From Escherichia coli (lineage in GTDB: Bacteria > Pseudomonadota > Gammaproteobacteria > Enterobacterales > Enterobacteriaceae), in NCBI RefSeq assembly GCF_003790525.1, contig NZ_CP033635.1: a stretch of DNA of 64,000 bases. The stretch is one strand, 5' to 3'. The notes under the pieces are model-generated. The model saw only the letters and a program-made list of their open reading frames with translations, did no database searches and was not told the origin of the DNA. The position numbers were made by a program, and so were the translations under genes. The first letter of the stretch is position 1, and every line of letters starts with the position of its first letter. Below are positions 11,758 through 41,333 of this stretch, one piece after another.

Positions 11758-11794
11758 TAAAAAACCGGAGCACAGACTCCGGTTTTTTGTTTTG
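11758..11794. terminator. Bidirectional rho-independent terminator between convergent mdh and degS
   Basis: aaaaaaccggagcacagactccggtttttt: hairpin flanked by an A-run and a T-run. Confidence 0.8.
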
Positions 11795-11804
11795 AGCGCA
11801 CGAC

Positions 11805-12872: not shown

Positions 12873-12961
12873 GATGGAGGCATCGTTAAAAAAGGGAACG
12901 GCAGCAGCATACCACGAGTTAACCGGACATCACACGTCAGCCTGATGCCCGGTTTACGACA

Positions 12962-14329: not shown

Positions 14330-14482
14330 TATTCCTGCTCTCGTACCTGAATGATAAGAAAAGAGATTCAAAACAGTTTGATGTTATTGAATTTTCAGAC
14401 GGCTAACAATGAGACACCAGATTAAATGATAGTCGGGGAGGGAGAGAAGAGGAGGGCGCAATGGCTGCGCCCGAAAAATAAA

Positions 14483-14881: not shown

Positions 14882-15074
14882 GAACATCTCCCGTTGTCTT
14901 TTGTTTCCGTAGGGTGTTGGCTTCAGGCTCCATGCCTGCGGCTGATTATGCCACTATAACCGTTAATTCCACAGAAGTGGAATCCCGACTGCATATCGCG
15001 TAGTGTAGAACGGCCTTTTTTTCGTCAACCGTGAACAACGGCGCACCGATTATTCAAGGAATAACAATAAGATC

Positions 15075-16202
15075 ATGCAAAGCGTTACCCCAACATCGCA
15101 ATACCTGAAGGCGCTCAATGAAGGCAGCCATCAACCCGACGACGTTCAAAAAGAGGCCGTCAGCCGCCTGGAAATTATTTATCAGGAACTCATCAATAGC
15201 ACGCCTCCAGCCCCTAGGACGAGTGGGCTAATGGCGCGGGTCGGTAAGCTGTGGAGTAAACGCGAAGACACAAAGCATACGCCAGTGCGTGGCTTATATA
15301 TGTGGGGCGGTGTAGGACGCGGGAAAACCTGGCTGATGGACCTTTTCTATCAAAGCCTGCCGGGAGAGCGGAAACAGCGTCTGCACTTTCACCGTTTTAT
15401 GCTGCGGGTGCACGAAGAGCTGACCGAATTACAAGGCCAAAGCGATCCGCTGGAAATTATTGCCGATCGCTTTAAAGCAGAAACTGACGTGCTCTGTTTT
15501 GACGAATTTTTTGTTTCTGATATTACCGATGCCATGCTACTTGGCGGTCTGATGAAAGCCCTGTTCGCCCGAGGTATTACCCTGGTAGCGACGTCAAATA
15601 TTCCGCCGGACGAACTTTATCGAAATGGCCTACAACGTGCGCGTTTTTTGCCTGCAATCGATGCCATTAAACAGCATTGTGATGTAATGAACGTGGACGC
15701 TGGTGTTGATTATCGACTGCGTACACTCACTCAGGCGCATCTGTGGCTTTCGCCCCTCAACGATGAAACCCGGGCGCAAATGGATAAACTATGGTTGGCG
15801 CTGGCGGGGGCGAAACGAGAAAATTCACCGACATTAGAAATCAACCATCGGCCATTGGCGACAATGGGCGTCGAGAACCAGACGCTGGCGGTCTCTTTTA
15901 CTACGCTGTGCGTCGACGCCCGCAGTCAGCATGACTATATTGCGCTCTCACGCCTCTTTCACACGGTCATGTTGTTTGATGTACCAGTTATGACGCGGTT
16001 GATGGAGAGCGAAGCGCGGCGCTTTATTGCGCTGGTGGATGAGTTTTACGAGCGCCATGTCAAATTAGTGGTGAGTGCAGAAGTGCCGCTATATGACATT
16101 TATCAGGGCGAGCGGCTGAAATTTGAGTTCCAGCGTTGCCTGTCACGTCTGCAAGAGATGCAAAGCGAAGAGTATCTGAAGCGCGAGCATTTAGCGGGTT
16201 AA
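15075..16202 (+). CDS. zapE: Cell division ATPase ZapE/YhcM (375 aa)
   Basis: Full ORF; Walker A GGVGRGKT; recognised as ZapE. Confidence 0.93.
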   Translation: MQSVTPTSQYLKALNEGSHQPDDVQKEAVSRLEIIYQELINSTPPAPRTSGLMARVGKLWSKREDTKHTPVRGLYMWGGVGRGKTWLMDLFYQSLPGERKQRLHFHRFMLRVHEELTELQGQSDPLEIIADRFKAETDVLCFDEFFVSDITDAMLLGGLMKALFARGITLVATSNIPPDELYRNGLQRARFLPAIDAIKQHCDVMNVDAGVDYRLRTLTQAHLWLSPLNDETRAQMDKLWLALAGAKRENSPTLEINHRPLATMGVENQTLAVSFTTLCVDARSQHDYIALSRLFHTVMLFDVPVMTRLMESEARRFIALVDEFYERHVKLVVSAEVPLYDIYQGERLKFEFQRCLSRLQEMQSEEYLKREHLAG

Positions 16203-16333
16203 AACCTGCCACAAATCACAAAAAGGGGTCGATCTTTGACCCCGACTTCTCTATAATCCTGCGACCCCACGTTACAAGAAAGTTTTTTTCCCAAAACTTT
16301 TTGTGTGCTGGCATAGGCTATTCGAAGGGGTAG

Positions 16334-16849
<516 letters not shown>

Positions 16850-16861
16850 TCGGGATTATAG

Positions 16862-17257
<396 letters not shown>

Positions 17258-17290
17258 TTGGCTTCTGCTCCGGCAGAAAACAATTTGCGA

Positions 17291-17318
17291 AAAAACCCGC
17301 TTCGGCGGGTTTTTTTAT
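17291..17318 (+). terminator. Rho-independent terminator of the rplM-rpsI operon
   Basis: aaaaacccgcttcggcgggttttttt hairpin plus T-run. Confidence 0.85.
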
Positions 17319-17650
17319 GGCTAAATTCTGAATCAGCGTAAAAAATGGAAAGTTGCTTTTTGCTGCCGTCTGACAACAGGCAAAACAAAAACCACATCGC
17401 CAATAAGGGACTAAGTCAACTATTTCAGACTAAAGCGCATCTCTTTTTCCCCATTTCCGGCATCGACTCACCACAAAGGTCGCAAAATCTGGTAAACTAT
17501 CATCCAATTTTCTGCCCAAATGTCGGGTATTGCTCATTTTTTGTTTGATTTTCGAACAAAGAGAGTCGTTCCTTACTGGGTAACACAACTTCTGACTGGC
17601 CACCTGGTGGCTGGTAGCAGTAAAAATTCTGACTATACCTGGAGGTTTTC

Positions 17651-18289
17651 ATGGCTGTCGCTGCCAACAAACGTTCGGTAATGACGCTGTTTTCCGGTCC
17701 TACTGACATCTATAGCCATCAGGTCCGCATTGTGCTGGCTGAGAAAGGTGTAAGTTTCGAGATCGAACACGTGGAAAAGGACAATCCGCCTCAGGATCTG
17801 ATTGACCTCAACCCGAATCAGAGCGTTCCGACCCTGGTGGATCGTGAGCTGACCCTGTGGGAATCTCGCATCATTATGGAATATCTGGATGAGCGTTTCC
17901 CGCATCCGCCACTGATGCCTGTTTACCCGGTAGCTCGCGGTGAAAGCCGTCTGTACATGCATCGCATCGAAAAAGACTGGTACACGCTGATGAACACCAT
18001 CATCAACGGTTCAGCTTCTGAAGCAGATGCCGCACGTAAGCAACTGCGCGAAGAACTGCTGGCGATTGCGCCGGTCTTCGGTCAGAAGCCGTACTTCCTG
18101 AGCGATGAGTTCAGCCTGGTCGATTGCTACCTTGCTCCGCTGCTGTGGCGTTTGCCGCAACTGGGCATCGAGTTCAGCGGCCCGGGGGCGAAAGAGCTGA
18201 AAGGCTATATGACCCGCGTCTTTGAGCGTGACTCTTTCCTTGCTTCTTTAACTGAAGCTGAACGTGAAATGCGTCTGGGCCGGAGTTAA
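17651..18289 (+). CDS. sspA: Stringent starvation protein A (212 aa)
   Basis: Full ORF; GST-like sequence recognised as SspA. Confidence 0.96.
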   Translation: MAVAANKRSVMTLFSGPTDIYSHQVRIVLAEKGVSFEIEHVEKDNPPQDLIDLNPNQSVPTLVDRELTLWESRIIMEYLDERFPHPPLMPVYPVARGESRLYMHRIEKDWYTLMNTIINGSASEADAARKQLREELLAIAPVFGQKPYFLSDEFSLVDCYLAPLLWRLPQLGIEFSGPGAKELKGYMTRVFERDSFLASLTEAEREMRLGRS

Positions 18290-18294
18290 TCTGT

Positions 18295-18792
18295 ATGGAT
18301 TTGTCACAGCTAACACCACGTCGTCCCTATCTGCTGCGTGCATTCTATGAGTGGTTGCTGGATAACCAGCTCACGCCGCACCTGGTGGTGGATGTGACGC
18401 TCCCTGGCGTGCAGGTTCCTATGGAATATGCGCGTGACGGGCAAATCGTACTCAACATTGCGCCGCGAGCTGTCGGCAATCTGGAACTGTCGAATGATGA
18501 GGTGCGCTTTAACGCGCGCTTTGGTGGCATTCCGCGTCAGGTTTCTGTGCCGCTGGCTGCCGTGCTGGCTATCTACGCCCGTGAAAATGGCGCAGGCACG
18601 ATGTTTGAGCCTGAAGCTGCCTACGATGAAGATGCCAGCATCATGAATGATGAAGAGGCATCGGCAGACAACGAAACCGTTATGTCGGTTATTGATGGCG
18701 ACAAGCCAGATCACGATGATGACACTCATCCTGACGATGAACCACCGCAGCCACCACGCGGTGGTCGACCAGCATTACGCGTTGTGAAGTAA
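18295..18792 (+). CDS. sspB: ClpXP adaptor, stringent starvation protein B (165 aa)
   Basis: Full ORF with acidic C-terminal tail ending ...GGRPALRVVK (ClpX-binding); recognised as SspB. Confidence 0.96.
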   Translation: MDLSQLTPRRPYLLRAFYEWLLDNQLTPHLVVDVTLPGVQVPMEYARDGQIVLNIAPRAVGNLELSNDEVRFNARFGGIPRQVSVPLAAVLAIYARENGAGTMFEPEAAYDEDASIMNDEEASADNETVMSVIDGDKPDHDDDTHPDDEPPQPPRGGRPALRVVK

Positions 18793-18796
18793 TACT

Positions 18797-18830
18797 AAAA
18801 CAGGCCCTGGCGGCCTGTTTTGTCTTTTTA
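18797..18830. terminator. Bidirectional terminator between sspB and convergent dcuD
   Basis: aaaacaggccctggcggcctgttttgtcttttt hairpin flanked by A and T runs. Confidence 0.8.
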
Positions 18831-18835
18831 ATCGC

Positions 18836-20203
18836 TTAATAAAATAGCGTGATAGTGGCAATCATATTCACCACGAAACCGACTGCCATGGGGATCGCTG
18901 TCCGCTTCACTACCGCAAAAGGCGAAACGCCTGCAATTCCTGACGTAACGACCACCACCGCAGTAATCGGCGAAACAGCGCGCGCTAGCGTCGTGGCAAA
19001 ATGCATTGGCATAATCATTACAACCGCTGGTACATGTAGTCCGGCTGCGATATTCGGAATAAGACTGGCAAATGACATAAACGGCGCATTGCCTGAGCCC
19101 ATCACAATGGCACAAATGGCAATGACCAGCGCCATAATAATCATCACGCCAATACCGCCCAGACCAGAATGCTCCGCCCCCCTGATAACCGCATCGACAG
19201 TGCCAATCGTCGTTAAGCCTTTCGCAAATATTTCACCCGCGACCACCAGCGTTACCACGTTGGCAAACTGCGTACCCATGCCGTCAAAAAACGCCTGCAC
19301 ATCGTCCATTGTTTCGCGCAAGTTATGCTTGCGGAAGAACTCAACAAACATCGTCACCGTCAAACTCAGTAACATCACCACCACCAGATGCAGTTCTGAC
19401 TGCATCAGCCCGACGTGGGCAAGGAACAGCGAGCCGAGCATCAGGATTAACGGCATCACCGGTAAAATGGCGTAATAGAGCGGCGGGACATTATCGAGAG
19501 CTTTTTGCTCTGCCTGTTCGTGATTGATATGTTTATCTTTTTTGTCGAAAGCGCGTTGCACGAAAAAGTGGGAGATCGCCACCGAGATAATGACGCAAGA
19601 GGCGACCGGAAGCTGGTAGTGGAAGAAGTAAGTGGCAATTTTCATTCCTGCGACCTGGGCAGCAAAAATGGAGTTCGTTTCCAGAATCCCCCACTCAATG
19701 GACATGGTGGTTGCGATAACCGCCACCGCAGAGAGACGACTTACTCCCAGACTCACCAGCGTCGGAAATAAGGTGACCATCAGCAACATACCCAGACCGG
19801 AGGCGCTGGTAATAAACTGCGCCATGATTTGGCCGATGACGTAAGTTGCCGACAGAATAATATACGGCGAGCGAATGAGTTTTAACGGGCGGCTTAACAA
19901 GCTCACCATCGCGCGACTTGCCCCTATGCGCTCCATATAGCGGGCATAACCGCCCACTGCCATAATCGACAGCCCCAATCCGGCAATGCGGTTGGACAGC
20001 ATGCGCAGGATTTCATTATAAATATCGACGATCAAGTAGCCGCTGCTTTTGGCGGGATCGAGCACACCACCGAACCCTAACCAGACACCGCACATCATCA
20101 GGAAGATACCTGCGGCAGCCAGCACCACCTGAGGTTTGTAGTTTTTCAGGATCAAATAGCCCATCGTAATTAATACGATGACAGATATAATTATGCCGAA
20201 CAT
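18836..20203 (-). CDS. dcuD: Putative C4-dicarboxylate transporter DcuD (455 aa, DcuC family)
   Basis: Polytopic membrane protein; ATG at 20203 ([11 protein letters not shown]...) fits the recalled DcuD N-terminus; the track ORF extends 6 codons further upstream. Confidence 0.88.
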
Positions 20204-24725: not shown

Positions 24726-26058
<1,333 letters not shown>

Positions 26059-26204
26059 ACGTATTCGCTCAGGCAGGGGGCGCTGGTTGGGAACTCAACG
26101 TTGGCATGGTTTCGCTGCTCTTGTGTAGATGTGTTGCAGTTATTTGCGACATTCCGCCGGAGTAGCGGAACTATGGAAAACGGCAATTGGCGCTCTTATC
26201 CCTT

Positions 26205-26236
26205 AGCTTTGTAAGGCTTAATTTTGGTAGAATGGG
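26205..26236 (+). promoter_or_regulatory. Candidate sigma70 promoter with extended -10 (TGgTAGAAT) for the AT-rich two-gene module
   Basis: TGGTAGAAT at 26225-26233 seen directly; the -35 is weak (TTGTAA or TTAGCT with non-ideal spacing). Confidence 0.35.
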
Positions 26237-26264
26237 GAATCGTTTAACGGAAAAAAACAATCAG

Positions 26265-26759
26265 ATGATTTCTTTTCTATCCGATGAATTTGAGGAATTT
26301 CCGCAGGGAGATTTTTTAAATCATCTCTATAGGTTTTCGGTAGACCATCATCATTTTATCGTGATATTTAGCCCTATTGATATTAGCGATGCGGAGTACC
26401 ATCAATACCGTAGCGAGGAAGTTGGATTTGAAATCCCAACTAATTGTTTTGATGTGAAATTTGATAGGCAAGAAAACTTTGATAGTGGTAACTTTTACAT
26501 GCCCCCCGCCGCAACTGAATGCTCGAGGCGCAGACGCTTTACTGATGAACTCGCAGAGGCGCTAGCAACGATTATTGAAAAGCATTACATCATTTATCAT
26601 GCCAGGGCTTATCTTGCCATCGCAGAGAATGACAAGTTGAAACGTTACTATGACCGGATTTTACACAATGCCCCGGCTAATGTAGCATATAGAGTAATCA
26701 AAGATGTTGGAGAGGAGGAACGAGGTTATGCCATACAAACCGAATGTTTCCGAACTTAA
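26265..26759 (+). CDS. Hypothetical acidic protein (~164 aa from ATG 26265; alternative starts 26232 or 26187), no recognised domain
   Basis: Single long ORF in an AT-rich (~40% GC by eye) segment; MISFLSDEFEEFPQGDFLNHLYRF...; no motif I recognise; start ambiguous, weak RBS. Confidence 0.6.
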   Translation: MISFLSDEFEEFPQGDFLNHLYRFSVDHHHFIVIFSPIDISDAEYHQYRSEEVGFEIPTNCFDVKFDRQENFDSGNFYMPPAATECSRRRRFTDELAEALATIIEKHYIIYHARAYLAIAENDKLKRYYDRILHNAPANVAYRVIKDVGEEERGYAIQTECFRT

Positions 26760-26874
26760 GAAAATGACTGTTGCAGAGCGCAAGAAAGAAGCCATGCGCC
26801 AGCTTAAAGCATCCTTTGAGCGCGCCAGCATTGAAGGGACTTTGCATAAACGCTCTGCAAAGTCTGTTGCGTAA
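26728..26874 (+). CDS. Hypothetical small basic protein (48 aa), overlaps the 3' end of the preceding ORF by 32 nt in another frame
   Basis: Strong RBS GAGGAGG 7-13 nt upstream of ATG 26728; MPYKPNVSELKKMTVAERKKEAMRQLKASFERASIEGTLHKRSAKSVA; below the ORF-track length cutoff, found by reading. Confidence 0.5.
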   Translation: MPYKPNVSELKKMTVAERKKEAMRQLKASFERASIEGTLHKRSAKSVA

Positions 26875-26888
26875 TGAAAGATTTCAAT

Positions 26889-26914
26889 AACCCGCTGCGG
26901 CGGGCCTTTTTTTG
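26889..26914. terminator. Rho-independent terminator 15 nt after the small ORF (possibly bidirectional, facing the convergent VWA gene)
   Basis: cccgctgcggcgggcctttttttg: GC stem plus T7 run. Confidence 0.75.
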
Positions 26915-27095
26915 CCCTCAGAAAATCCCCTCTGACCTGCCTCAGGGATTATATACAACCTTCAGTTAATTAGCTGCGCACCATACGCGGCCCGAGCCTT
27001 ATCGCCTTGTTCAAATTCGACAATTCGTCGGCCAATTTCCCCGAACGTCGCGGTGCTAAGTACCGTATCCGTCCGGGCGTATCCGGCCAGAATTT

Positions 27096-28265: not shown

Positions 28266-30504
28266 GATTTTCCCTTTCGTGTGGTGGCAAAGCCAGAATG
28301 CGGCGCAGTAGCGGCAGCATTAACGCGGCACGCTGTTCATCCCATATACCGCTGGTCTCTTCTTGCTGCGCGACACGCTCGCCCTGCGCGGCGCGTTCGC
28401 CTAACTGGCGGCGTTCCGGGCTGGAAAAACGGCCGAATGTCCGCCGCAGCATCGGCAGGATCCGGGTGAAGTGATTGTCGTTCAGGCCGCTTAGCCAGGC
28501 ATCGATCAACTGCCATAATTCGCTATTGTGCAGTAGCACCATCGCGCTGTCGTTGAGGAAACCTTCCGCCCATGCGGCACTTTCCGCCGGGGGATTGGCT
28601 GGCGATAGCGCCAGGTTCATCAGCGTGCTGATCCGTTCTGTCGTTAACGTTTGCAGATCAAACAACAGGCGCGTCGCCGTTCCGCGAAGCAGCGCGTGTG
28701 CGGTACTGCCCTCTGCCAGCACCATCAACGCCTGCAACCAGCCCGCCAATAGATCTTCGTTATCCAGCAACCGCAGCGCGGCGTGGGCGTCGATAACTTT
28801 TTCTCTCATACTGGCGGCGCTGTCGTCGTTGAGCGCCGAACAGGCTCCGGGTAGGGCGATGGCGGCGCGCGGGGCGAGGCTCATCAGTACCTGCATTACC
28901 ATACCAGAGTCGGTCTGGCGCACGTTGCCGTAGCGGACAATCGCCACCAGTGGTGCCAGGGCTTCCAGCAACTGTTCGATATTGCCCTGAGTGGCAGCCA
29001 GTGATTCCAGTGTATTGGCGATGGGGGCAATCGCGGTCTGTAAATCGGCCAGTAGCACCTGTTGGATAAGCTTTGCCAGTTCCGGCAGCGTGCTGGCGTA
29101 TTGCGCCCTCACAATGGCATAGCGGGAGCTGGCCTGCTCAATGCTGTTACCCCAACGGCTGGCGGTAATGATGTTGATTGCCAGTGCCGGTTCCCAGCGC
29201 AGCGACCAGACTTCGTGGAACGTCCCTTTGCTGTTATTTCCTTGTCCAGCCAGACGGCCCCAGGAAATGTCGAGTAAGGTCAGGCGATGCAGTAAATGGC
29301 TACGCGCCAGATCGCCGGGTTTGCGCAGATCAAGATCCAGCACTTTTTCGCTGGCTTCTGCCTTCAGGCGCAGCGTTTTTTGCTGTTGCGTAATGTCGCG
29401 TTGGAGCGGCACGACGGGCGTATCATCCGGTACGCTTCCCAGCGCGTCGCCGACAATTAACTTCTGGCGAATCATCTGCATTGGCGCGCTTTCGCCCATA
29501 CACACTACGGTTTGCAGCGCTTCGCAAAGTTCGTCAAGCCCCGGCTGCGGGTGATGGCGCATAATCGCCAGCGTCTGCGCCAGCCGCGCCGCTTCGATAA
29601 TGTGGGCGCTGGAACAGTCGAGATCGGCTTCGCGAAACAGCCTTGCCGCGCGTGACAGCCAGCCGATATCGCGGTGAGAAGCGCCCTGATAACGCCACAG
29701 ATGATCGTACCATTCCGGTGACACCACCCCTGCGCCATAACCGCTGGCGCGGCTTAACGCCTCGTAGCTCCAGGGCGTCCAGGCTGCCGCGACCTTGCAC
29801 TTCGGCAAATTTTTCAGCAGTTCGTTATCATTCTTTGCGGGCGGCAGGTTTTCCAGCGCCGGAACGTGCCACGCACCGCAGACTACCGCGATGCGCGAGA
29901 AGCCCTCTTTTTTCGCCTGACGTAGCGTCTTGCGCATATACGCTTCACGCAGTTGATCTCTGGCTGAGTTTCGGGCTTCGGGAGTTGCCTGGCGTAGGGC
30001 AATCATCGCCTCGCGAATCGCCTCGAACAGAGACAAATCATCTTCGCGTTCCTCTACTCTGTGGCTCCACCAGCTTTCCCCATCGGTGTAACCGGCGGCG
30101 CGGCCCAGCCAGTCCAGCGGATCGCCGTCGGGACTGGCTTCAACGGCATCATCGTCATCGCTCTCTTTTTCGTCATCAAGCGCGAACTGATGACTGATGG
30201 GCAAGTCCATAAAGCGCACGGCGATATTTTGCTCAAAACCATAGCGCAGCGCCTGCCATTCCGGGGAGAACGCCGCAAAGGGGTAAAACGCGGCGTGATG
30301 TGAGTCGTCCGGGGCATAAATCAGTAGCGCGACCGGCGGTTGCATCTGTTCATGCTGCATAAAAGGCAGGATGGATTCGCCGTCGGGCGGCCCTTCCACC
30401 AGCAGGCAGTCGGGCTGTAGCGTCTCCAGCGCCTTTCGCAGGCTGCGCGCGCAGCCAGGGCCATGGTGACGGATGCCAAACAAATGAACGGTTTGTTCAG
30501 TCAT
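28255..30504 (-). CDS. Large hypothetical protein (749 aa), no motif recognised; fourth gene of novel operon
   Basis: Uninterrupted 2.25-kb ORF; AAGG RBS in the 17-nt gap after the AAA+ gene; acidic stretch DDEKESDDDDAVEASPDGD; helical Leu/Ala-rich C-terminal half. Confidence 0.8.
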   Translation of the reverse strand: MTEQTVHLFGIRHHGPGCARSLRKALETLQPDCLLVEGPPDGESILPFMQHEQMQPPVALLIYAPDDSHHAAFYPFAAFSPEWQALRYGFEQNIAVRFMDLPISHQFALDDEKESDDDDAVEASPDGDPLDWLGRAAGYTDGESWWSHRVEEREDDLSLFEAIREAMIALRQATPEARNSARDQLREAYMRKTLRQAKKEGFSRIAVVCGAWHVPALENLPPAKNDNELLKNLPKCKVAAAWTPWSYEALSRASGYGAGVVSPEWYDHLWRYQGASHRDIGWLSRAARLFREADLDCSSAHIIEAARLAQTLAIMRHHPQPGLDELCEALQTVVCMGESAPMQMIRQKLIVGDALGSVPDDTPVVPLQRDITQQQKTLRLKAEASEKVLDLDLRKPGDLARSHLLHRLTLLDISWGRLAGQGNNSKGTFHEVWSLRWEPALAINIITASRWGNSIEQASSRYAIVRAQYASTLPELAKLIQQVLLADLQTAIAPIANTLESLAATQGNIEQLLEALAPLVAIVRYGNVRQTDSGMVMQVLMSLAPRAAIALPGACSALNDDSAASMREKVIDAHAALRLLDNEDLLAGWLQALMVLAEGSTAHALLRGTATRLLFDLQTLTTERISTLMNLALSPANPPAESAAWAEGFLNDSAMVLLHNSELWQLIDAWLSGLNDNHFTRILPMLRRTFGRFSSPERRQLGERAAQGERVAQQEETSGIWDEQRAALMLPLLRRILALPPHERENHVE

Positions 30505-30521: not shown

Positions 30522-31616
30522 TTACACAATTTCGCGGCAGGCGCGATAGAGATCGTTCCAGTCGCTGCGCTCTTTGACTATAGTTTCCAGATATTCACGC
30601 CATACCACGTCGTCCTGCACGGGATCTTTTACCACCGCGCCGATAAGGCTTGCGGCGATATCCCGCGGATGTAGCACGCCGTCGCCAAAATGGCCCGCCA
30701 GCGCCATACCGTTGTTGATAACGGAGATCGCCTCCGCGGTGCTGAGAGTACTGGTTGGCGACTTAATTTTCGTTTTGCCGTCAACCGTCAGGCCGTTTCG
30801 CAGTTCGCGGAAGATTTGCACGACTCGCTGGATCTCTTTAAGCGCTGGCGGTTCGGCAGGAAGTGCCAGCGCCTGACCCAGTTCGGCGACGCGGCGAGTG
30901 ACAATGTTAATCTCTTCTTCTTCGCTGGCGGGTACGGGCAAAATGACCGTGTTGAAACGACGTTTAAGTGCGGAAGAAAGCTCGTTAACGCCTTTATCCC
31001 GGTTGTTGGCGGTGGCGATAACGTTAAAGCCGCGCGTCGCCTGGACCTCTTCATTCAGTTCGGGGATAGGCAGCGTTTTTTCCGACAGGATCGTGATCAG
31101 CGTGTCCTGAACATCGGCAGGAATACGCGTCAGCTCTTCTACGCGGGCAATCTGCCCGCGTGCCATCGCCCGCATCAATGGGCTTTCTACCAGCGCCGAA
31201 CGTGACGGACCTTTAGAGAGCAACTCCGCGTAGTTCCAGCCATAACGCATTTGTTCTTCACCGGTGCCTGCGGTGCCCTGAATAATTAACGTTGAGTCGC
31301 CGCTGATGGCAGCCGCCAGATGTTCAGAGACCCAGGATTTCGCAGTGCCGGGTACGCCATACAACAGCAGTGCGCGATCGGTTGCCAGCGTGGCAACGGC
31401 GGTTTCGATAATCCGCCTGTTGCCGATATATTTCGGCGTGACCTCAAAACCATTTTCCAGTTGCCCGCCTAACAGATAAGTAGCAACGGACCACGGAGAA
31501 ATAGCCCAGTTTTCCGGGCGCGGATGAGTATCGTTTTTTTGCAGCTCATCCAGTTCTTCTGCAAATTGTTGTTCGGCATGTCGGCGTAAAACGGCGGCAG
31601 TAGCGGTGGAAGTCAT
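30522..31616 (-). CDS. MoxR-like AAA+ ATPase (364 aa from ATG 31616); third gene of novel operon
   Basis: Walker A LLLYGVPGTAKS (GxPGxAKS, MoxR-type), Walker B-like IARVEELTRIPADVQ, sensor-1 NVIATANN, Arg finger LKRRF; ATG overlaps the upstream stop as ATGA. Confidence 0.85.
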   Translation of the reverse strand: MTSTATAAVLRRHAEQQFAEELDELQKNDTHPRPENWAISPWSVATYLLGGQLENGFEVTPKYIGNRRIIETAVATLATDRALLLYGVPGTAKSWVSEHLAAAISGDSTLIIQGTAGTGEEQMRYGWNYAELLSKGPSRSALVESPLMRAMARGQIARVEELTRIPADVQDTLITILSEKTLPIPELNEEVQATRGFNVIATANNRDKGVNELSSALKRRFNTVILPVPASEEEEINIVTRRVAELGQALALPAEPPALKEIQRVVQIFRELRNGLTVDGKTKIKSPTSTLSTAEAISVINNGMALAGHFGDGVLHPRDIAASLIGAVVKDPVQDDVVWREYLETIVKERSDWNDLYRACREIV

Positions 31617-33217
31617 AAAGTAGTTTCTCCGACAAAAAACGAATGAAGTTGAATTCGGTGCGCCAGCGTGGCGCTCAGGGCAGTAAAGGCTGCCTCGCAA
31701 TAAGGCGTTTGTTGTGCGTCATGCGGCCACTTGTCAATGACATCATTGAGGACTTCGGGGGCCAGCAGGCAGGCGAAATCACTCATCACATGGCGCAGGG
31801 CGTAGTCAAAGCGCGCGGAATCATGTTTCACCCAACGGTGCAGCTCCGTGACCATTTGCTGGCTCAGGCGCAGGCTAAAGAGCGACGCATCCAGCGGTAA
31901 CAGGGCGATGTAGCGTTGTAAATGTTCGCCGCCCATTACCGAGAACAGTAACGTCAACACTGGCTCGTGTTCTTCTACGGGCAGGCATTGCAGAAGCTCA
32001 AAGGCGTTAATCTTCACGCCAGCAGGGGAATGAATGCTTATTCCGACGGGGAGTAGGGCGAGGAATGCCTGCGCCCACTGTGGATTTTTTTCGCGCAGGA
32101 CGGCGTGATACCAGGCGCGCAGTAGCGCCTCCTGCCAGTCGGTTTTCCCGGCCCAGCGCAGCAGTTCAACGGGGGTAGCCTGCAGTTGCGTTTGCCACCA
32201 GTCGAGCGGAACCGCTGCAACTATCTGATACAGCCACCATGCGCGCTGGCCCAACTTTTCGCCTTTGGGCTTAGTTTCTTCCAGCGCATCGGCCTTCCAC
32301 TCTGGTAAGAACGCCTCCGGGGCATCAAGGGCGACGCGCAGCATTTTTTCTTTGCCGGATAAGCCTTTTAGCCTTTCAAGTAAGGTCTCAGGAGCGGGGG
32401 ATGAACTGAGCAACGGCGCTAACCGAGACTTCATGCGCGAGATCCAGGCGCTTTCCGGCAGACAACACAGTAACCGTGCCGCAGTTTGCCGCACCTCTTT
32501 GCTGCGATCGGATAATGTCTGTTCCAGAAAGGCTTCGTCGTGTTGGGAGATCCCCACTTCCAGCACAGCCAGCAGCTGTGCGCGTTCGCGGGCATCCAGC
32601 GAACTCATCTCCTGCGCCAGCCGATCGCGACCCTGTTCCGGGGCGCGAATGCGCATTTGCGTCAGATATTGCAGACGCTGTTCGGACGTGCCGTGCAGCC
32701 ACATTTCTTCATCCAGCGGAGCGTCAGTGGAGGCGAGAACATAGCCCCAATCGGCGTTGATTTGCGCCAGCCAGCACCCGCGAGCGCCCAGAACATTGGA
32801 CAGGATGCCGCGTAGAGATGGCTTTTGCGCTCCATAATTCAGCAATGCTGGTAACAGCAGGGGCGGAGGAAGAAGTTGACGACGGACCAATAGATCAAGC
32901 GCCGACCACAGCAACCGCGGCGGTCCTTCTGACAGCAGCAGATGCAGCAGTCCCGCAAAAGCCGGGTTGTTTATTGGCTCGGCATTTTCTTTATCGATTT
33001 CCGGCAGCGGTGCGGGGTCAATCGCCTGCGGCACCCAGCCAGCCAGATGGCAGAGCGCCAGAACGCCCGCCGAGCGCAGTAGCTGTTGCTCTGCGGATGT
33101 GTTATTCGCCAGTTCAGACAGTAACAGCCCAATCTCACTTTGCGACGCCGACGGTGTAAACGCTTTTTTGTCTGTGCCGAGTAGCGCTGTGCGGGTTAAA
33201 TTTTGCCATTCGTTCAT
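31613..33217 (-). CDS. Hypothetical alpha-helical Leu-rich protein (534 aa from ATG 33217; 541 aa if 33238); second gene of novel operon
   Basis: Long ORF; ATG at 33217 forms an ATGA overlap with the SWIM gene stop; Leu/Ala/Trp-rich repeat-like sequence; no catalytic motif recognised. Confidence 0.8.
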   Translation of the reverse strand: MNEWQNLTRTALLGTDKKAFTPSASQSEIGLLLSELANNTSAEQQLLRSAGVLALCHLAGWVPQAIDPAPLPEIDKENAEPINNPAFAGLLHLLLSEGPPRLLWSALDLLVRRQLLPPPLLLPALLNYGAQKPSLRGILSNVLGARGCWLAQINADWGYVLASTDAPLDEEMWLHGTSEQRLQYLTQMRIRAPEQGRDRLAQEMSSLDARERAQLLAVLEVGISQHDEAFLEQTLSDRSKEVRQTAARLLCCLPESAWISRMKSRLAPLLSSSPAPETLLERLKGLSGKEKMLRVALDAPEAFLPEWKADALEETKPKGEKLGQRAWWLYQIVAAVPLDWWQTQLQATPVELLRWAGKTDWQEALLRAWYHAVLREKNPQWAQAFLALLPVGISIHSPAGVKINAFELLQCLPVEEHEPVLTLLFSVMGGEHLQRYIALLPLDASLFSLRLSQQMVTELHRWVKHDSARFDYALRHVMSDFACLLAPEVLNDVIDKWPHDAQQTPYCEAAFTALSATLAHRIQLHSFFVGETTL

Positions 33218-34536
33218 TGTGCGCCTCCGGTTGCCCAAATGACGCTACCGGCAAGCCAGGCGCTACAGGGCGTCAGCTGCTGACCATCCCATTCCCCCAT
33301 TAGCATAAACGGCGCGCCGCCGCTGGCCGCCAGTAACCGCCAACCCTCGTCCGACGACAGGTGCGTCGGTAAGTGCTGGCCCTGTGTCGAGACGAATCGC
33401 CAGCCGCTCTCGTGCGGGTAAATCAATATTTCGCTTACTCGCAGCGGCAGAGGCCATTGCCAGGGATTCGCGCTAAGCCGCTGCGCCATGTCATGCAGCG
33501 CGTCCGGGAGGGGTAATTCTGCAAGCGGGAATCTTTCACCGCGGGTAAACGGCTCCACAACCCGCGCCCGTAGCGGTGATGCGCCAGGGAAAAAGGCAAG
33601 CGCGCCCTGGCAGACTTGCCCGGTGATAAAGTGCTGGGGAAAGTTTTTACTACCGTGTGAATAGTCCAGCAGTAGCGCGGTGCGGTGGCTCTTTTCTCCG
33701 TACAGCCAGACCCGGCGTCGCCACAGATTATTCCCTTCTTGCGCGCTTTGACCTAAGACCTGCCAGTTATCGAGGCAGGTTAATCCGTCAGTGACGTCGT
33801 GTTTATCCGGGGGTATTCCCAATGCCGCATGGAGATCGCTAAGTTGTGCCGGGGATAACATTTGTTGCTGGCGCCAGGCGTCAATAATCAGCTGTAGCTG
33901 CCCCAGTTCTTTGCACAGGCTCGATGGCCATACCTCGGCGGTAGTAAAATGAGTGGTCAGATTGTTCAGGCGAGCGGCAATTCCCGGTAGTTGGGCGTCG
34001 ACCATGCGGGCGGCGATCCCGGCAAAAGGCAACTGTTGTGCAGAGATCTGCGCCAGACCGTGGCGGATCAGGTCGTGCATCCACTGTTCGAGGAAATCCA
34101 GCCCCGCCGTCATTTTTTGGTTGCGTGCCGCTTCCCGTTTGGCGGCAGCCTGCGGGTCGGCAGCTTTTGCCTCAGCCTGCTCTTTCTTCTCTTCTTTGCG
34201 AACCGCCCGCTGCTGGCGCGAGGTTAGCCACTCGCTTACCCATTCCGGCGGCTCGCCAGCGGTGAAACTTGCGGTGTGTTGCACCTGGAGAAAAAGCAAC
34301 GCAAGGCTATGTTTACAGGGGAATTTACGGCTGGGGCAGGAACATTTACAGGCCAGATCCTGTCTGTCGATTCGTACCTGATAAGGGCGGGAGCCGCTAC
34401 CTTTACACTCTCCCCAGAAGGCAGCCTCGCTATATCCGAGCGTCGGCCATTTTGCGGGAGCAACCAGGCCACGAGCCGCTTTAACCGAGGCGTCATCGGG
34501 CGCCAGGGCTTGCACTGATTCAACGGTCAGTTCCAT
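33214..34536 (-). CDS. SWIM zinc-finger domain protein (440 aa); first gene of novel operon
   Basis: CxCxnCxH signature at residues 63-76 (ACKCSCPSRKFPCKHSLALLF); first ORF downstream of gltD on the same strand. Confidence 0.85.
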   Translation of the reverse strand: MELTVESVQALAPDDASVKAARGLVAPAKWPTLGYSEAAFWGECKGSGSRPYQVRIDRQDLACKCSCPSRKFPCKHSLALLFLQVQHTASFTAGEPPEWVSEWLTSRQQRAVRKEEKKEQAEAKAADPQAAAKREAARNQKMTAGLDFLEQWMHDLIRHGLAQISAQQLPFAGIAARMVDAQLPGIAARLNNLTTHFTTAEVWPSSLCKELGQLQLIIDAWRQQQMLSPAQLSDLHAALGIPPDKHDVTDGLTCLDNWQVLGQSAQEGNNLWRRRVWLYGEKSHRTALLLDYSHGSKNFPQHFITGQVCQGALAFFPGASPLRARVVEPFTRGERFPLAELPLPDALHDMAQRLSANPWQWPLPLRVSEILIYPHESGWRFVSTQGQHLPTHLSSDEGWRLLAASGGAPFMLMGEWDGQQLTPCSAWLAGSVIWATGGAQ

Positions 34537-34649
34537 TACAATTCTCTATTGGCGTGGGGAAATCGATGGGGTCAAGGAGGCGTTAAGCAAAGCAGGAGGA
34601 GACTGTTTTCCGTAACAGCGTATTGCGCGTCCATCGCAAATTTGTAGTG

Positions 34650-34679
34650 AGTATAGCGGGCGGTAAATTCAGGAAACAA
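34650..34679 (-). promoter_or_regulatory. Candidate sigma70 promoter for the five-gene operon (-35 TTGTTT, 18-bp spacer, -10 TATACT on minus strand)
   Basis: Hexamers read on the reverse complement ~115-140 nt upstream of the SWIM start codon; heuristic only. Confidence 0.3.
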
Positions 34680-34721
34680 TGGCGGATAGCGGAAAGTGTA
34701 GTTTTTCGGAAAAAGATAACT

Positions 34722-34760
34722 TTATCCCGTGTAACCCGTTTTAAGCGGGCTACACGGGAG
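34722..34760 (-). terminator. Hairpin downstream of gltD (candidate terminator or attenuator)
   Basis: Inverted repeat cccgtgtaacccg / cgggctacacggg 10-45 nt after the gltD stop; the trailing U-tract on the minus strand is interrupted. Confidence 0.4.
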
Positions 34761-34768
34761 GCTGCAAT

Positions 34769-36199
<1,431 letters not shown>

Positions 36200-39100
36200 T
36201 TACTGCGCCTGCACGCGCAACTCTGCTGCGCTACGACTACGGTGACCCAGCAGTGCTTTTACATCACTGGACTTCGGTTTAACCAGCGCGAATTTCGTGG
36301 CGAAGGTTGACCAGTTCGCCAGAATCTCTTCACCGCGCTGGGAACCGGTATGCTGCACATGCTCGGTGATAAGACCACGCAGATGCTCTTCATGGATCGC
36401 CAAATCGTCAACGCTTAAGACCTCGACCAGTTCCGGGTTAACGCGTTTGCGGAAATCGCCGCTTTCATCGAGAACGTAAGCGAAGCCACCGGTCATGCCC
36501 GCGCCGAAGTTAACGCCGGTTTTACCCAGAATACAGACAATACCGCCCGTCATATATTCACAGCCGTTGTCGCCAATGCCTTCTACCACGGTGATAGCAC
36601 CGGAGTTACGTACGCCGAAACGTTCACCCGCGCGGCCTGCGGCATACAGACGACCTCCGGTCGCGCCATACAGGCAGGTGTTGCCGATAATGCTTGCTTC
36701 ATGGCTGCGGAAGGCTGAGCCAACCGGAGGACGAATGGCAATTAAGCCGCCCGCCATGCCTTTACCGACATAGTCGTTAGCATCGCCGGTCAGATACAGT
36801 TCCACGCCGCCCGCGTTCCACACACCGAAGCTCTGGCCTGCGGTGCCGTTGAAGTATGCTTTGATCGGATCGGCAGCCAGCCCCTGATCGCCGTGCGTCT
36901 GGGCGATATAGCCTGAAAGCGACGCGCCGACAGAACGATCGGTGTTGCGGATATCGAACCAGAAGGTTTTGCTCTGGCGTTCATCGACAAACGGTTTTGC
37001 CTGTTGCAGCAACTGCGCGTTCAGTAGGCCGTTATCAAACGGCGGGTTGTTTTCGGTGCAGTAGAGTGCCTTACCTGCATTTGGCTCGGCAGTTTCCAGC
37101 AGCTTCGACAGCGCCAGTTTCTGCTGTTTGGCGGTGAAACCGTCCAGCTCTTTCAGCAGGTCGGTGCGACCAATCAGATCCACCAGACGCGTTACCCCCA
37201 GCTGTGCCATCAGCTCGCGGGTTTCACGGGCGATAAACTCAAAGTAATTAGTCACTTTGAACGGCAGGCCGTGATAGTGATTCTTACGCAGTTTGTCATC
37301 CTGAGTTGCTACACCCGTGGCGCAGTTGTTCAGGTGGCAAATTCGCAGATATTTACAGCCAAGCGCTACCATCGGGCCAGTGCCGAAGCCGAAGCTTTCT
37401 GCGCCGAGAATCGCCGCTTTGATGATATCAACGCCGGTTTTCAGGCCGCCATCAACCTGCAAACGGATCTTGTGACGCAAGCCGTTGGCAACCAGCGCCT
37501 GTTGGGTTTCAACAAGCCCCAGCTCCCACGGACAGCCTGCGTATTTCACCGATGAAAGCGGACTTGCGCCGGTGCCGCCGTCATAGCCTGCGATGGTGAT
37601 TAAATCGGCATAAGCTTTTGCCACGCCAGTCGCGATGGTGCCTACGCCCGGTTCGGAAACCAGCTTCACGGAGATCATCGCTTTTGGATTGACCTGCTTG
37701 AGGTCGAAAATCAGCTGCGCTAAATCCTCAATAGAGTAGATATCGTGGTGCGGCGGCGGGGAGATCAGCGTCACGCCCGGCACCGAATAGCGCAGTTTGG
37801 CAATGTAAGGAGTGACTTTATCACCCGGTAACTGACCACCTTCACCCGGCTTCGCGCCCTGGGCGACTTTTATCTGAATGACGTCGGCATTGACCAGGTA
37901 CGCCGGAGTAACGCCGAAGCGACCGGACGCCACCTGCTTGATGCGCGACACTTTGTTAGTGCCATAGCGCGCCGGGTCTTCACCGCCTTCGCCGGAGTTT
38001 GAGTTACCGCCGATGCTGTTCATCGCTTCCGCCAGCGCCTCGTGGGCTTCCGGGCTTAACGCGCCGATAGACATCGCGGCGGTATCGAAGCGTTTAAACA
38101 GTTCGCTTGCCGGTTCAACATCGGCAATGTTGACTGCGTTTTCACCCGGCGTAATTGCCAGCAGATCGCGCAGCGTGGTTGCCGGACGCTCATTAACCAG
38201 CTTCGCGTATTCCTGATAGTCGCTATACTCGCCGCTCTGTACCGCCTGTTGCAGCGTGCGCACCACGTCCGGGTTGTAGGCGTGGTATTCGCCGCCGTGC
38301 ACGTATTTCAGCAGGCCGCCCTGGCTGATGGGCTTACGCGCCAGCCAGGCACGTTTCGACAGATTCAGCAGATCCTGCTGGAAGTCTTCAAAGCTAGCCC
38401 CCCCAATGCGGCTAACCGCCCCCTGGAAGCACAGGCCCACGACATCATCGTGCAGACCGACCGCTTCAAACAGTTTCGAGCAGCGGTAAGAGGCGATGGT
38501 GGAGATGCCCATTTTGGACATGATTTTGTACAAGCCTTTGTTGATGCCGTTACGATAGTTGAGCATCACGGTACGATAATCTTTGGCAATCGCGTGGGTG
38601 TCTACCAGACGGCCCAGCGTTTCATAGGCAAGGTACGGATAAATAGCCGTCGCGCCGAAACCCAGCAACACGGCGAAGTGGTGCGGATCACGGGCGCTGG
38701 CGGTTTCGACGATGATGTTGGCATCGCAACGCAGGCTTTGATCGACCAGACGGGTCTGGATCGCGCCAACCGCCATCGGAGCCGGAACCGGCAGGCGATC
38801 TTTAGCGATATTCCGGTCGGAGAGCACCAGCAGTACGGTGCCGCTACGTACCATTTTTTCGGCTTTGTCGCACAGTTCTTTCACCGTCGCTTCGAGCGTG
38901 GTTTTAGTGACGTCAAAGGTGATATCCAGCGTATCTGCGCGGTAGTGATCCTCTTTCATCGTCGTGAGCTGTTTGAAATCGGAATAGAGCAGAATCGGCG
39001 ATTTAAAGCTTAAACGGTGCGCCTGGCCTTCTGCTTCGCAGAAGACGTTCATTTCGCGGCCAATGCTGGTGGCGAGCGACATAACATGCGCTTCACGCAG

Positions 39101-40753
39101 CGGGTCGATTGGCGGGTTAGTCACCTGGGCAAATTGCTGGCGGAAGTAGTCGTAAATAATGCGCGGCTGACTGGAGAGCACGGCGAATGGGGTGTCGTCG
39201 CCCATCGAACCGACCGCTTCCTGACCGTTTTCACCCAGTACGCGGATCACCGAATCCAGCTCTTCCGCGCTGTAGTTAAATTGTTTCTGGTAGCTGGCAA
39301 GCGTGTCGTCGTCCAGTTCGCGGCTACCCACTTCTTCATCGGGCAGATCTTCAAACGGTACCAGACGGCGGACGTTTTTCTCCATCCACTCTTTATAAGG
39401 GTGGCGGCTTTTCAGATCGTCATCGGTTTCTGCCGAGTGCAGAATACGCCCACTGCGGGTGTCGATCACCATCAGTTCGCCTGGCCCCACGCGGCCTTTT
39501 TCGACCACTTCGTCAGGCTGATAATCCCAGATACCGACTTCAGAGGCGCAGGTAATGAGCTTATCTTTGGTGATGACATAGCGTGCCGGACGCAGACCGT
39601 TACGGTCGAGGTTACAGGCGGCAAAACGACCGTCAGACATCACGATGCCTGCCGGGCCATCCCACGGCTCCATATGCATGGAGTTAAAGTCAAAGAAGGC
39701 ACGCAGTTCCGGGTCCATATCCGGGTTGTTCTGCCAGGCGGGTGGCACTAACAGACGCATGGCGCGGATGATATCCATCCCGCCTGCCAGCAGCAGTTCC
39801 AGCATGTTATCCATGGAACTGGAGTCAGAGCCGGTTTCGTTGACGAACGGCGCGGCGTCGTGCAGGTCAGGGATCAGCGGCGTCTGGAATTTATAGGTAC
39901 GCGCACGCGCCCATTGGCGGTTACCAGTGATGGTGTTGATTTCACCGTTATGCGCGAGGTAGCGGAACGGCTGTGCCAGCGGCCAGCGCGGTACGGTGTT
40001 AGTGGAAAAGCGCTGGTGGAACAGGCAAATGGCCGATTCCAGACGCAGGTCCGCAAGATCCAGATAAAAGCGCGGCAGATCCGCCGGCATACACAGACCT
40101 TTATAGATGTTCACCAGATTCGACAGGCTACAGACGTAGAAGTCTTTGTCGGCTTCGAGACGCTTTTCAATGCGGCGGCGGGCGATAAACAGACGGCGCT
40201 CCATATCGCGTGGACGCCAGCCTGCCGGGGCGTTCACAAAAATTTGCTCAATGCGTGGCAGAGAGGAGAGGGCGATTTCACCCAGCACGCCTTCGTTAGT
40301 GGGGACATCACGCCAGCCCACAATCGACAATGTTTCGCGTTGCAGCTCTTCTTCAACGATGCGGCGTGCGGCAGCGGCGAGTTCAGGATCTTTATTCAGG
40401 AAGAGCATCCCGACAGCGTAGTTTTTTGCTAAACGCCAGCCGCGCTCCTGCGCAACGATGCGAAAAAAGCGATCCGGTTTTTGTAACAGCAAGCCGCAAC
40501 CGTCACCGGTTTTACCATCGGCGAGAATCGCGCCACGGTGCTGCATGCGGGCCAGTGCGTGTATTGCAGTACGCACTACCTTGTGGCTAGGTTCGCCTTC
40601 TATGTGGGCGATCAGGCCGAAACCACAGTTATCCCTCTCAAGGGATTTATCGTACAACATATCGTGAACCTCCCCCAGGCTCTGCGGGAACCCCACTTCC
40701 GAACCGCTGCGCACGGGCACAGAAAGAGCGTGGCGACGGGGTTTGCGTGTCAT
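36200..40753 (-). CDS. gltB: Glutamate synthase large subunit GltB (1517 aa including propeptide; mature N-terminal Cys after ...LERDN)
   Basis: 4.5-kb ORF; MTRKPRRHALSVPV... then CGFGLIAHIEG amidotransferase N-terminus; the track ORF starts 5 codons upstream; an alternative start at MLYDK (40660) is possible. Confidence 0.95.
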   Translation of the reverse strand: MTRKPRRHALSVPVRSGSEVGFPQSLGEVHDMLYDKSLERDNCGFGLIAHIEGEPSHKVVRTAIHALARMQHRGAILADGKTGDGCGLLLQKPDRFFRIVAQERGWRLAKNYAVGMLFLNKDPELAAAARRIVEEELQRETLSIVGWRDVPTNEGVLGEIALSSLPRIEQIFVNAPAGWRPRDMERRLFIARRRIEKRLEADKDFYVCSLSNLVNIYKGLCMPADLPRFYLDLADLRLESAICLFHQRFSTNTVPRWPLAQPFRYLAHNGEINTITGNRQWARARTYKFQTPLIPDLHDAAPFVNETGSDSSSMDNMLELLLAGGMDIIRAMRLLVPPAWQNNPDMDPELRAFFDFNSMHMEPWDGPAGIVMSDGRFAACNLDRNGLRPARYVITKDKLITCASEVGIWDYQPDEVVEKGRVGPGELMVIDTRSGRILHSAETDDDLKSRHPYKEWMEKNVRRLVPFEDLPDEEVGSRELDDDTLASYQKQFNYSAEELDSVIRVLGENGQEAVGSMGDDTPFAVLSSQPRIIYDYFRQQFAQVTNPPIDPLREAHVMSLATSIGREMNVFCEAEGQAHRLSFKSPILLYSDFKQLTTMKEDHYRADTLDITFDVTKTTLEATVKELCDKAEKMVRSGTVLLVLSDRNIAKDRLPVPAPMAVGAIQTRLVDQSLRCDANIIVETASARDPHHFAVLLGFGATAIYPYLAYETLGRLVDTHAIAKDYRTVMLNYRNGINKGLYKIMSKMGISTIASYRCSKLFEAVGLHDDVVGLCFQGAVSRIGGASFEDFQQDLLNLSKRAWLARKPISQGGLLKYVHGGEYHAYNPDVVRTLQQAVQSGEYSDYQEYAKLVNERPATTLRDLLAITPGENAVNIADVEPASELFKRFDTAAMSIGALSPEAHEALAEAMNSIGGNSNSGEGGEDPARYGTNKVSRIKQVASGRFGVTPAYLVNADVIQIKVAQGAKPGEGGQLPGDKVTPYIAKLRYSVPGVTLISPPPHHDIYSIEDLAQLIFDLKQVNPKAMISVKLVSEPGVGTIATGVAKAYADLITIAGYDGGTGASPLSSVKYAGCPWELGLVETQQALVANGLRHKIRLQVDGGLKTGVDIIKAAILGAESFGFGTGPMVALGCKYLRICHLNNCATGVATQDDKLRKNHYHGLPFKVTNYFEFIARETRELMAQLGVTRLVDLIGRTDLLKELDGFTAKQQKLALSKLLETAEPNAGKALYCTENNPPFDNGLLNAQLLQQAKPFVDERQSKTFWFDIRNTDRSVGASLSGYIAQTHGDQGLAADPIKAYFNGTAGQSFGVWNAGGVELYLTGDANDYVGKGMAGGLIAIRPPVGSAFRSHEASIIGNTCLYGATGGRLYAAGRAGERFGVRNSGAITVVEGIGDNGCEYMTGGIVCILGKTGVNFGAGMTGGFAYVLDESGDFRKRVNPELVEVLSVDDLAIHEEHLRGLITEHVQHTGSQRGEEILANWSTFATKFALVKPKSSDVKALLGHRSRSAAELRVQAQ

Positions 40754-41333
40754 ACGCGCACCTCGCATTCGCCCCCTTGTTGTCCTTTTCGCATCGGTTA
40801 ATACGGTGAAGAGGGGATCTCAATTACTGCATAAATATGATGAGCAGGCTGCTCATCCAGAAAGCTTCCAGCGGATTTCCAACTTATCGGGAAAGCTGAT
40901 ACAGGTCAAATGGCAAGCTTATTGGTACAGAAATGTGCTTTAGCGCAAAATTCTTTATTAATTGTCTGAAATTAAAGTGGATTTTCTATTTAAGGCTAAA
41001 AGGGCGTCGTTAGAGAAACAGTCAATTCCTGACTGTCATAAAGGCGTGTTAACCCTTATCCTGCCTTGAACTGACGAGAAAACCAGCATTTTATACTGCC
41101 TTAATTGGTAATAACGTTTCATGCTACTGTTTTTGCCTAAAATCCATAAGGAGATAAAAAAATCTGACACAAGATAAGCAAAAGTGATTTATGTGATTGT
41201 GCATGAAATTTCGGTAATTTTGATTGATTATGCAGTTGATAAAAGCAGGCCGGGACGATTGATCCAGGTCATCGCCGAATTGAGCTAAAAATGGCAGGCT
41301 TTGGCCTCTTTTCAAGGCGCGGTCTATCAGATT
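40754..41333. promoter_or_regulatory. AT-rich divergent control region between gltB and yhcC (gltBD promoter region)
   Basis: ~580-bp AT-rich intergenic region upstream of gltB; individual binding sites not resolved. Confidence 0.4.

Follow-up and report, generated by a model that had tools for sequence, protein, structure and literature searches.

The question raised by this locus is what a SWIM zinc-finger protein is doing directly downstream of gltD in the small minority of Escherichia coli genomes that encode it. The window, i.e. the whole stretch of DNA analysed, comprises 64,000 nucleotides of an E. coli chromosome (contig NZ_CP033635.1), identical to E. coli SMS-3-5 (NC_010498.1), and the SWIM gene occupies positions 33214-34536 on the minus strand. 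The balance of evidence favours a reading in which the SWIM protein and the DUF5691 protein encoded beside it form the recognition or adaptor module of a MoxR-VWA remodelling machine, with a DUF5682 protein as its likely catalytic partner. This reading draws on the architecture of the SWIM protein, the organisation of a five-gene operon that recurs across phyla, the relation of that operon to yehLMPQ of E. coli K-12 and a marked asymmetry in evolutionary rate between its parts.

The interval 33214-34536 was confirmed as a real open reading frame (ORF) of 440 codons starting with ATG, is annotated in RefSeq as 'SWIM zinc finger family protein' and encodes a 440-aa protein as the first cistron of its operon. 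A Pfam-A search (hmmscan) placed the SWIM model PF04434 at residues 59-81 (positions 34294-34362, minus strand; E=2.4e-6), which bears out the SWIM signature reported in a preliminary description of this DNA made without database searches. That description had proposed C63, C65, C74 and H76 as ligands, of which the last three stood; when 79 full-length homologues were aligned, C65, C67, C74 and H76 proved invariant (79/79), whereas C63 was replaced by Phe in 64 of the 79 and is therefore not a ligand, its place in the proposed set going to C67. The conserved finger is C65-x-C67-x6-C74-x-H76, and these four residues are the predicted zinc ligands; C44 was likewise invariant in the same alignment.

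The remaining ~360 residues had been described as free of recognisable motifs, a view that had to be abandoned once an AlphaFold2 (AF2) model was built from the 79-sequence alignment (mean predicted local distance difference test score, pLDDT, 92.3; predicted template modelling score, pTM, 0.75). The model has four parts, namely a beta/alpha SWIM module (residues 1-96), a helical bundle (residues 98-250; 33787-34245, minus strand) and two OB-like beta-barrels (residues 253-335 and 363-435; together 253-435, at 33232-33780, minus strand), the second of which has a helix between its strands in the manner of an OB fold. A Foldseek search with the model returned no match at E<=0.001, and its top matches were the tandem-OB nucleic-acid binders LEF-3, RPA70 and HIN together with ZSWIM8, the last at a probability of 1.0. 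The SWIM module resembles the solved, ZSWIM8-like SWIM domain and its assignment is well supported, while the OB-like character predicted for the C-terminal half is suggestive. Neither the SWIM protein nor the DUF5691 protein belongs to a family in NCBIfam, PADLOC or PHROGs.

The closest guide to what the finger might do is ZSWIM8 (PDB 9rwz), the substrate receptor of a cullin-3 ubiquitin ligase, with which the SWIM module shares its fold. The SWIM domain of ZSWIM8 has been described as the central element that organises a protein-protein superdomain (PMC13083262), which makes a part in structure or assembly no less likely for the finger than DNA binding. The likeness is one of fold and does not imply shared function: identity is only 10-18%, the SWIM protein lacks the BC-box and the cullin box, and its setting is bacterial, with an AAA+ motor in place of the ubiquitin ligase.

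As the preliminary description had recognised, the SWIM gene is the first after gltD on the same strand and the first cistron of its transcription unit; a gap of 232 nt separates it from gltD, and the operon (hereafter the cassette) comprises five genes, all on the minus strand, in the order SWIM, DUF5691, AAA_5 MoxR ATPase, DUF5682 and CoxE-type VWA. Successive genes overlap by 4, 4 or 11 nt or stand 17 nt apart, and the cassette can therefore be treated as one translationally coupled operon. The second gene (31613-33217) has a 4-nt overlap with the SWIM stop codon and encodes a helical protein of 534 aa, recognised by Pfam DUF5691 (E=1.2e-122) with a weak HEAT match besides. The third (30522-31616) encodes a YehL-type MoxR AAA+ ATPase of 364 aa, annotated in RefSeq as 'ATP-binding protein', with a Pfam AAA_5 match at E=1.6e-38. 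Its PDB sequence matches were midasin and NorQ, and PHROG cobaltochelatase-type ATPases matched as well; corresponding PDB sequence searches with the SWIM profile and with DUF5682, VWA and DUF5691 returned nothing useful. Across the 49-60 loci over which motif conservation was judged, Walker A (GVPGTAKS), Walker B (EE) and the sensor-1-like and Arg-finger-like motifs (IATANnRD and ALkRRFNTV) of the ATPase were conserved. [quoted passage not shown]

The combination of an AAA_5 ATPase with a VWA partner carrying an intact MIDAS is shared with NorQ/NorD, CbbQ/CbbO, RavA/ViaA and CoxD/CoxE, and by analogy the cassette likely shares their working principle, in which the VWA domain plugs the pore of the ATPase hexamer and the MIDAS binds the target, as proposed for NorQ/NorD (PMC9976466). 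The cassette differs from these chaperone pairs in having three extra dedicated subunits (SWIM, DUF5691 and DUF5682) and no adjoining client enzyme. Within this broader group it belongs among the MoxR-VWA systems of the YehL subfamily, one of seven named MoxR subfamilies (PMC3893208). By sequence comparison, the products of its last three genes are paralogous to K-12 YehL (41% identity over 350 residues, E=2e-78), YehM (27% identity, E=6e-42) and YehP (38% identity, E=4e-80), in that order.

The two remaining subunits stand apart from the K-12 system. Both operons encode a SWIM-finger protein, but a BLASTP comparison of the cassette protein with YehQ gave E>1 with the finger alone aligning, and hhalign returned a probability of 0.3%; DUF5691 has no counterpart within the yeh cluster. 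A yeh-type system thus exists in a second version with different equipment, the cassette, in which the SWIM/DUF5691 half takes the place of YehQ. The arrangement differs accordingly, with SWIM and DUF5691 first in the cassette and yehQ last in the yeh operon, as does prevalence: with a presence in at least 5209 of 5426 complete E. coli genomes yehLMPQ is near-core, in contrast to the cassette, which 33 of the 5426 (0.6%) carry. Homology of the SWIM or DUF5691 protein to YehQ, YehI or YehK was considered and none was found; equally, none of the 82 cassette loci contained a homologue of YehI, YehK or YehQ. In K-12, YehI (L002 5280-8912), a 1210-aa DUF4132 protein, and the yehH pseudogene lie just upstream of yehLMPQ.

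Sequence comparisons indicate that the SWIM protein and the DUF5691 protein belong together as a unit. The two genes share an ATGA overlap, and their products are fused in L056, L070, L085 and P0174. Fused polypeptides occur in two Nocardia species and one Hydrogenophaga metagenome-assembled genome (MAG); further, a length of 950-1120 aa was seen for 13 of the top 150 representative clusters, and one of these was verified as a SWIM-DUF5691 fusion. Rates of change separate this pair from the rest of the cassette. Across 59 loci from more than 10 phyla, median identity to the E. coli protein was 43% for SWIM, 34% for DUF5691, 51% for DUF5682, 70% for VWA and 77% for the ATPase, the last with a minimum of 67%. 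Ratios of non-synonymous to synonymous substitution (dN/dS), calculated for SMS-3-5 against L007, a sister Escherichia lineage, were 0.25 for SWIM and 0.22 for DUF5691, against 0.03 for VWA and 0.02 for the ATPase, such that the pair evolves ~10x faster than the motor. The pairing of an extremely conserved motor with two fused adaptors that vary agrees with the idea of a specificity component, and the earlier suggestion that the SWIM protein is the sensor or specificity component of its operon is consistent with both the fast evolution and the fusions. The conservation of the ATPase is itself exceptional for an accessory gene.

In the 33 carriers among the 5426 complete E. coli genomes the cassette was always chromosomal and in single copy. 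Beyond the species, the SWIM family comprises 1843 clusters at 50% identity (E<=1e-30) and was found in at least 586 species from more than 10 phyla in a scan of one genome per species, with the cassette present in Proteobacteria, Desulfobacterota, Verrucomicrobia, Cyanobacteria, Chloroflexi, Planctomycetes, Actinobacteria, Bacteroidetes, Acidobacteria and others. Among the 80 best loci drawn from these species, the order SWIM-DUF5691-AAA-DUF5682-VWA was nearly invariant wherever the contig was long enough, and it was also seen in Rheinheimera and Mailhella; the gene order is thus ancient and nearly invariant across phyla. Clustering of all flanking ORFs at 82 loci revealed no recurrent flanking gene, only generic signalling and ABC transport families, and the cassette therefore appears to be self-contained, without an adjacent client. 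A phage origin was rejected, as the cassette is absent from phage genomes, and so was carriage on mobile plasmids, the 18 plasmid matches all being large, non-mobilisable replicons.

The position beside gltD is much more restricted. Both gltD (34769-36187) and gltB (36200-40768) lie upstream of the cassette on the same minus strand, and homology to K-12 stops exactly at the gltD stop codon, K-12 instead having gltF-yhcADEF-yhcG up to nanQ. The gltD-cassette-nanQ layout recurs in the sister lineage L007, with 93-94% nucleotide identity in gltBD and 90-95% in the cassette, and in another enterobacterial genus (L008/L009), with 85% and 67-84%, respectively. Since cassette and neighbours have diverged in parallel in L007 and L008, the cassette is old at this locus and has been lost or replaced in most E. 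coli; a recent island insertion was rejected on the same comparison, in which cassette divergence followed both gltBD and the nan genes. Adjacency to gltD was confined to three enterobacterial lineages and seen in 0 of 80 loci from other taxa, which goes against reading as functional the connection to gltBD raised in the preliminary description. The adjacency is probably a lineage-specific accident of location, the connection with nitrogen being positional only.

The likely catalytic partner is the DUF5682 protein. Its AF2 model (pLDDT 89.4) shows a TraB/ChaN (TIKI-superfamily)-like domain at approximately residues 1-270 (29695-30504, minus strand), followed by a HEAT-like helical solenoid, and in a fold search the parallel-sheet alpha/beta core of the N-terminal domain was similar to solved TIKI, TraB and ChaN members. 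Invariant residues comprise H13, E37 and H213 as well as E82, E151 and E187, and in the model H13, E37 and H213 come after strands 6-11, 33-36 and 205-210. Active TIKI enzymes have a core of two His and two Glu residues (2His/2Glu; PMC6254334), which the predicted placement of H13, E37 and H213 may resemble. The protein differs from the TIKI/TraB/PrgY/ChaN/erythromycin-esterase superfamily in showing no significant sequence-profile match to it and in carrying ~480 extra residues as the helical solenoid.

These observations can be assembled into a mechanism. The VWA protein would engage the pore of a hexamer formed by the ATPase, and its MIDAS would grip an acidic residue of the target, following the model of NorQ/NorD and other MoxR-VWA pairs. 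DUF5682 would bring its putative TraB/TIKI-like His/Glu site on a HEAT-like scaffold, probably as a peptidase or esterase, although a metal- or ligand-binding site would be an alternative reading of the same model. The fast-evolving SWIM-DUF5691 unit would act as the recognition or adaptor element that selects or tethers the target, within which the zinc finger may be a structural organiser of protein-protein contacts, by analogy with ZSWIM8, and the two predicted OB-like barrels may provide a binding surface for nucleic acid or peptide. As a whole, the assignment of SWIM and DUF5691 to a recognition module and of DUF5682 to a likely catalytic role is judged somewhat more probable than the alternatives taken together.

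Several observations weigh against this reading. In the profile test of DUF5682, none of 52 members gave a TraB_PrgY_gumN match in Pfam, and an hhalign comparison with the K-12 TraB-family protein YbaP was not significant (E=0.38), leaving the fold search and the motif as the evidence from which a TraB/TIKI assignment may be drawn. The proposed contacts among the five proteins are likewise taken from operon structure, gene fusion and analogy. In addition, the literature searched contained no functional paper on yehLMPQ and no mention of DUF5682 or DUF5691. A more ambitious extension is put forward only as a tentative possibility, namely that the five genes encode a hitherto undescribed type of ATP-driven processing machine, of which K-12 yehLMPQ would be a second version. 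In it a SWIM/OB/HEAT receptor, composed of the SWIM and DUF5691 proteins, would catch a particular target, either a protein or one bound to nucleic acid, and the hyper-conserved MoxR-VWA motor would pass it to DUF5682 as a TIKI/TraB-type hydrolase. If true, it would constitute a bacterial analogue, in logic rather than ancestry, of substrate-receptor-guided degradation.

Of the competing explanations, the one that survives best, though it appears unlikely, is that the cassette serves in NTP-dependent conflict or in defence against phage, where SWIM/DUF5691 would be the sensor of an invader molecule, the MoxR-VWA pair the transducer and the TIKI-like domain of DUF5682 an effector protease. Such a role would draw on largely the mechanism set out above. 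Systems of the vWA-MoxR-VMAP ternary type are an established conflict theme and similarly combine a MoxR ATPase, a VWA protein and further dedicated subunits in one operon (PMC7159879), and the cassette ATPase has a weak Pfam match to bpMoxR, the ternary conflict MoxR domain (E=2.9e-4). However, no VMAP or effector-associated domains were identified in the cassette, and the paper describing the ternary systems (Kaur et al. 2020, PMC7159879) mentions neither SWIM nor Yeh proteins. The patchy occurrence in E. coli, at a variable locus with the remains of pseudogenes and a low-GC orphan stretch next to it, would also suit a conflict system, as would the ~10x faster evolution of SWIM and DUF5691 and the rise of yehL and yehM in K-12 hns/stpA mutants. 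Set against these points, conservation of the ATPase and VWA proteins across phyla (77% and 70% identity, with dN/dS of 0.02-0.03) is unusual for immunity genes, divergence of the cassette in step with flanking housekeeping genes in L007 and L008 indicates vertical descent, and the paralogous yehLMPQ is near-core. Further, PADLOC-DB v2 contained no match for SWIM, DUF5691, DUF5682 or VWA and only a weak one between the ATPase and IetA (E ~1e-3) over the P-loop, there were no recurrent defence neighbours at the 82 loci, and the cassette was absent from phage genomes and mobilisable plasmids.

A second explanation, regarded as distinctly doubtful, is that the cassette encodes a MoxR-VWA maturation chaperone or metal inserter for a specific enzyme, possibly GltBD, with DUF5682 as a ChaN-like carrier of metal or cofactor and SWIM/DUF5691 as client adaptors. 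Pairs of the MoxR-VWA type, NorQ/NorD and CbbQ/CbbO among them, canonically serve in such maturation, and the resemblance of the ATPase to NorQ and to cobaltochelatase-type ATPases, the membership of the VWA protein in the CoxE family and the ChaN-like fold of DUF5682 are all in keeping with it. Such chaperones are, however, normally encoded beside their client, and no client-like gene recurs among the 82 loci. As for GltBD itself, the adjacency of gltD has been kept in three enterobacterial lineages, yet gltD adjoins none of the 80 non-enterobacterial loci and more than 99% of E. coli genomes have gltBD but not the cassette, a distribution that contradicts a GltBD-specific version.

A role for the SWIM protein as a free-standing DNA-binding regulator, for instance of nitrogen genes or of its own operon, rather than as a structural subunit, is very improbable given its obligate operon membership and fusions. 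In favour of such a role, its tandem OB-like barrels resemble single- and double-stranded DNA binders, its first barrel is basic (calculated pI 9.3) and SWIM fingers were reportedly implicated in DNA binding by Makarova, Aravind and Koonin in 2002. Against it, the gene is always accompanied by the same four partners in an unchanged order, its translation is coupled to that of DUF5691, and in several lineages the two are fused; the whole protein is near neutral, Pfam identified no helix-turn-helix (HTH) or other regulator domain in it, and its best-characterised structural relative uses SWIM as a protein-protein organiser.

With the recognition-module reading retained, the interest of the cassette lies in the fact that, together with yehLMPQ, it represents one of the larger conserved multi-gene bacterial systems without an assigned function. 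The SWIM gene and the Pfam families of the cassette are already catalogued; undescribed in the literature searched are the five-gene unit, its relation to yehLMPQ, the coupling of SWIM with DUF5691 and the TraB/TIKI-like domain of DUF5682. Testable handles are provided by the predicted zinc ligands, the SWIM-DUF5691 unit, the candidate His/Glu site of DUF5682 and a promoter-like box upstream of the cassette, and E. coli is a natural genetic system for using them, with the yeh version near-core and a second one rare within the same species.

The junction with gltD bears on how the cassette may be expressed. Directly after the gltD stop codon, RNA folding identified a stem-loop (34725-34759, minus strand) with a 14-bp stem, a folding energy of -27 kcal/mol and z=-4.0 relative to shuffled sequences, such that the hairpin previously described as weak is in fact strong. 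It is not a canonical intrinsic terminator, because the U-run lies 10 nt past the stem, and a terminator scan made no call there; it is likely the 3'-end hairpin of the gltBD transcript. In K-12, gltF is reportedly co-transcribed with gltBD across a comparable hairpin, and read-through from gltBD past the strong hairpin may likewise occur here.

An independent promoter for the cassette is most likely, judging from comparison of the upstream sequences. A -10-like box, TATACT (34650-34655, minus strand), is conserved among E. coli, L007 and L008 and is the candidate cassette promoter; it is followed by a leader of ~110 nt upstream of the SWIM start codon (34537-34649, minus strand) that contains blocks shared with L008. 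The last ~200 nt before the SWIM start codon, including box and leader, align between E. coli and L008 even though L008 has 550 extra bases with yhcG remnants between gltD and the cassette, and their retention despite these extra bases argues for an own promoter and a regulatory leader. Weighing against this is the lack of a good -35 element: the best candidate by eye, TTGTTT with an 18-nt spacer, gives ~8/12 matches together with TATACT, below the 9/12 threshold of the promoter scan, and the site was consequently unlisted. The sigma-70 scan found no minus-strand site at threshold in the gltD-SWIM spacer, and no sigma-54 promoter was seen there by eye. The spacer as a whole (34537-34768) is 97.8% identical between SMS-3-5 and L007, compared with 92-94% for the flanking genes, which suggests either a non-coding element under constraint or local recombination; it matched no Rfam family.

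Remnants of a yhcG (DUF1016) pseudogene lie next to the cassette in two genera, on the opposite side in each. In SMS-3-5, YhcG residues 22-68 are encoded at 26968-27090 (minus strand), downstream of the VWA gene, and in L008, residues 164-240 and 326-369 are encoded at 9382-9719 (plus strand), between gltD and the SWIM gene; this placement does not fit insertion into yhcG as a simple event. A low-GC stretch at 26000-26900 (plus strand; 40.6% at 26000-26499) lies between nanQ and the cassette and contains two orphan ORFs, 26187-26759 and 26728-26874, both annotated in RefSeq as hypothetical proteins, of which the 190-aa one had no NCBIfam or PADLOC match.

There were also isolated departures from the otherwise invariant structure of the cassette. 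Insertions of ~5 kb inside it were observed in L038 (~14200-18900) and L055 (~11300-16100), from Diaphorobacter and a gammaproteobacterial MAG. In two of the 33 positive E. coli genomes, NZ_CP190349.1 (H68) and NZ_AP040954.1 (H69), the match covered 96% of the cassette in two pieces, indicative of an internal deletion or insertion of ~300 bp.

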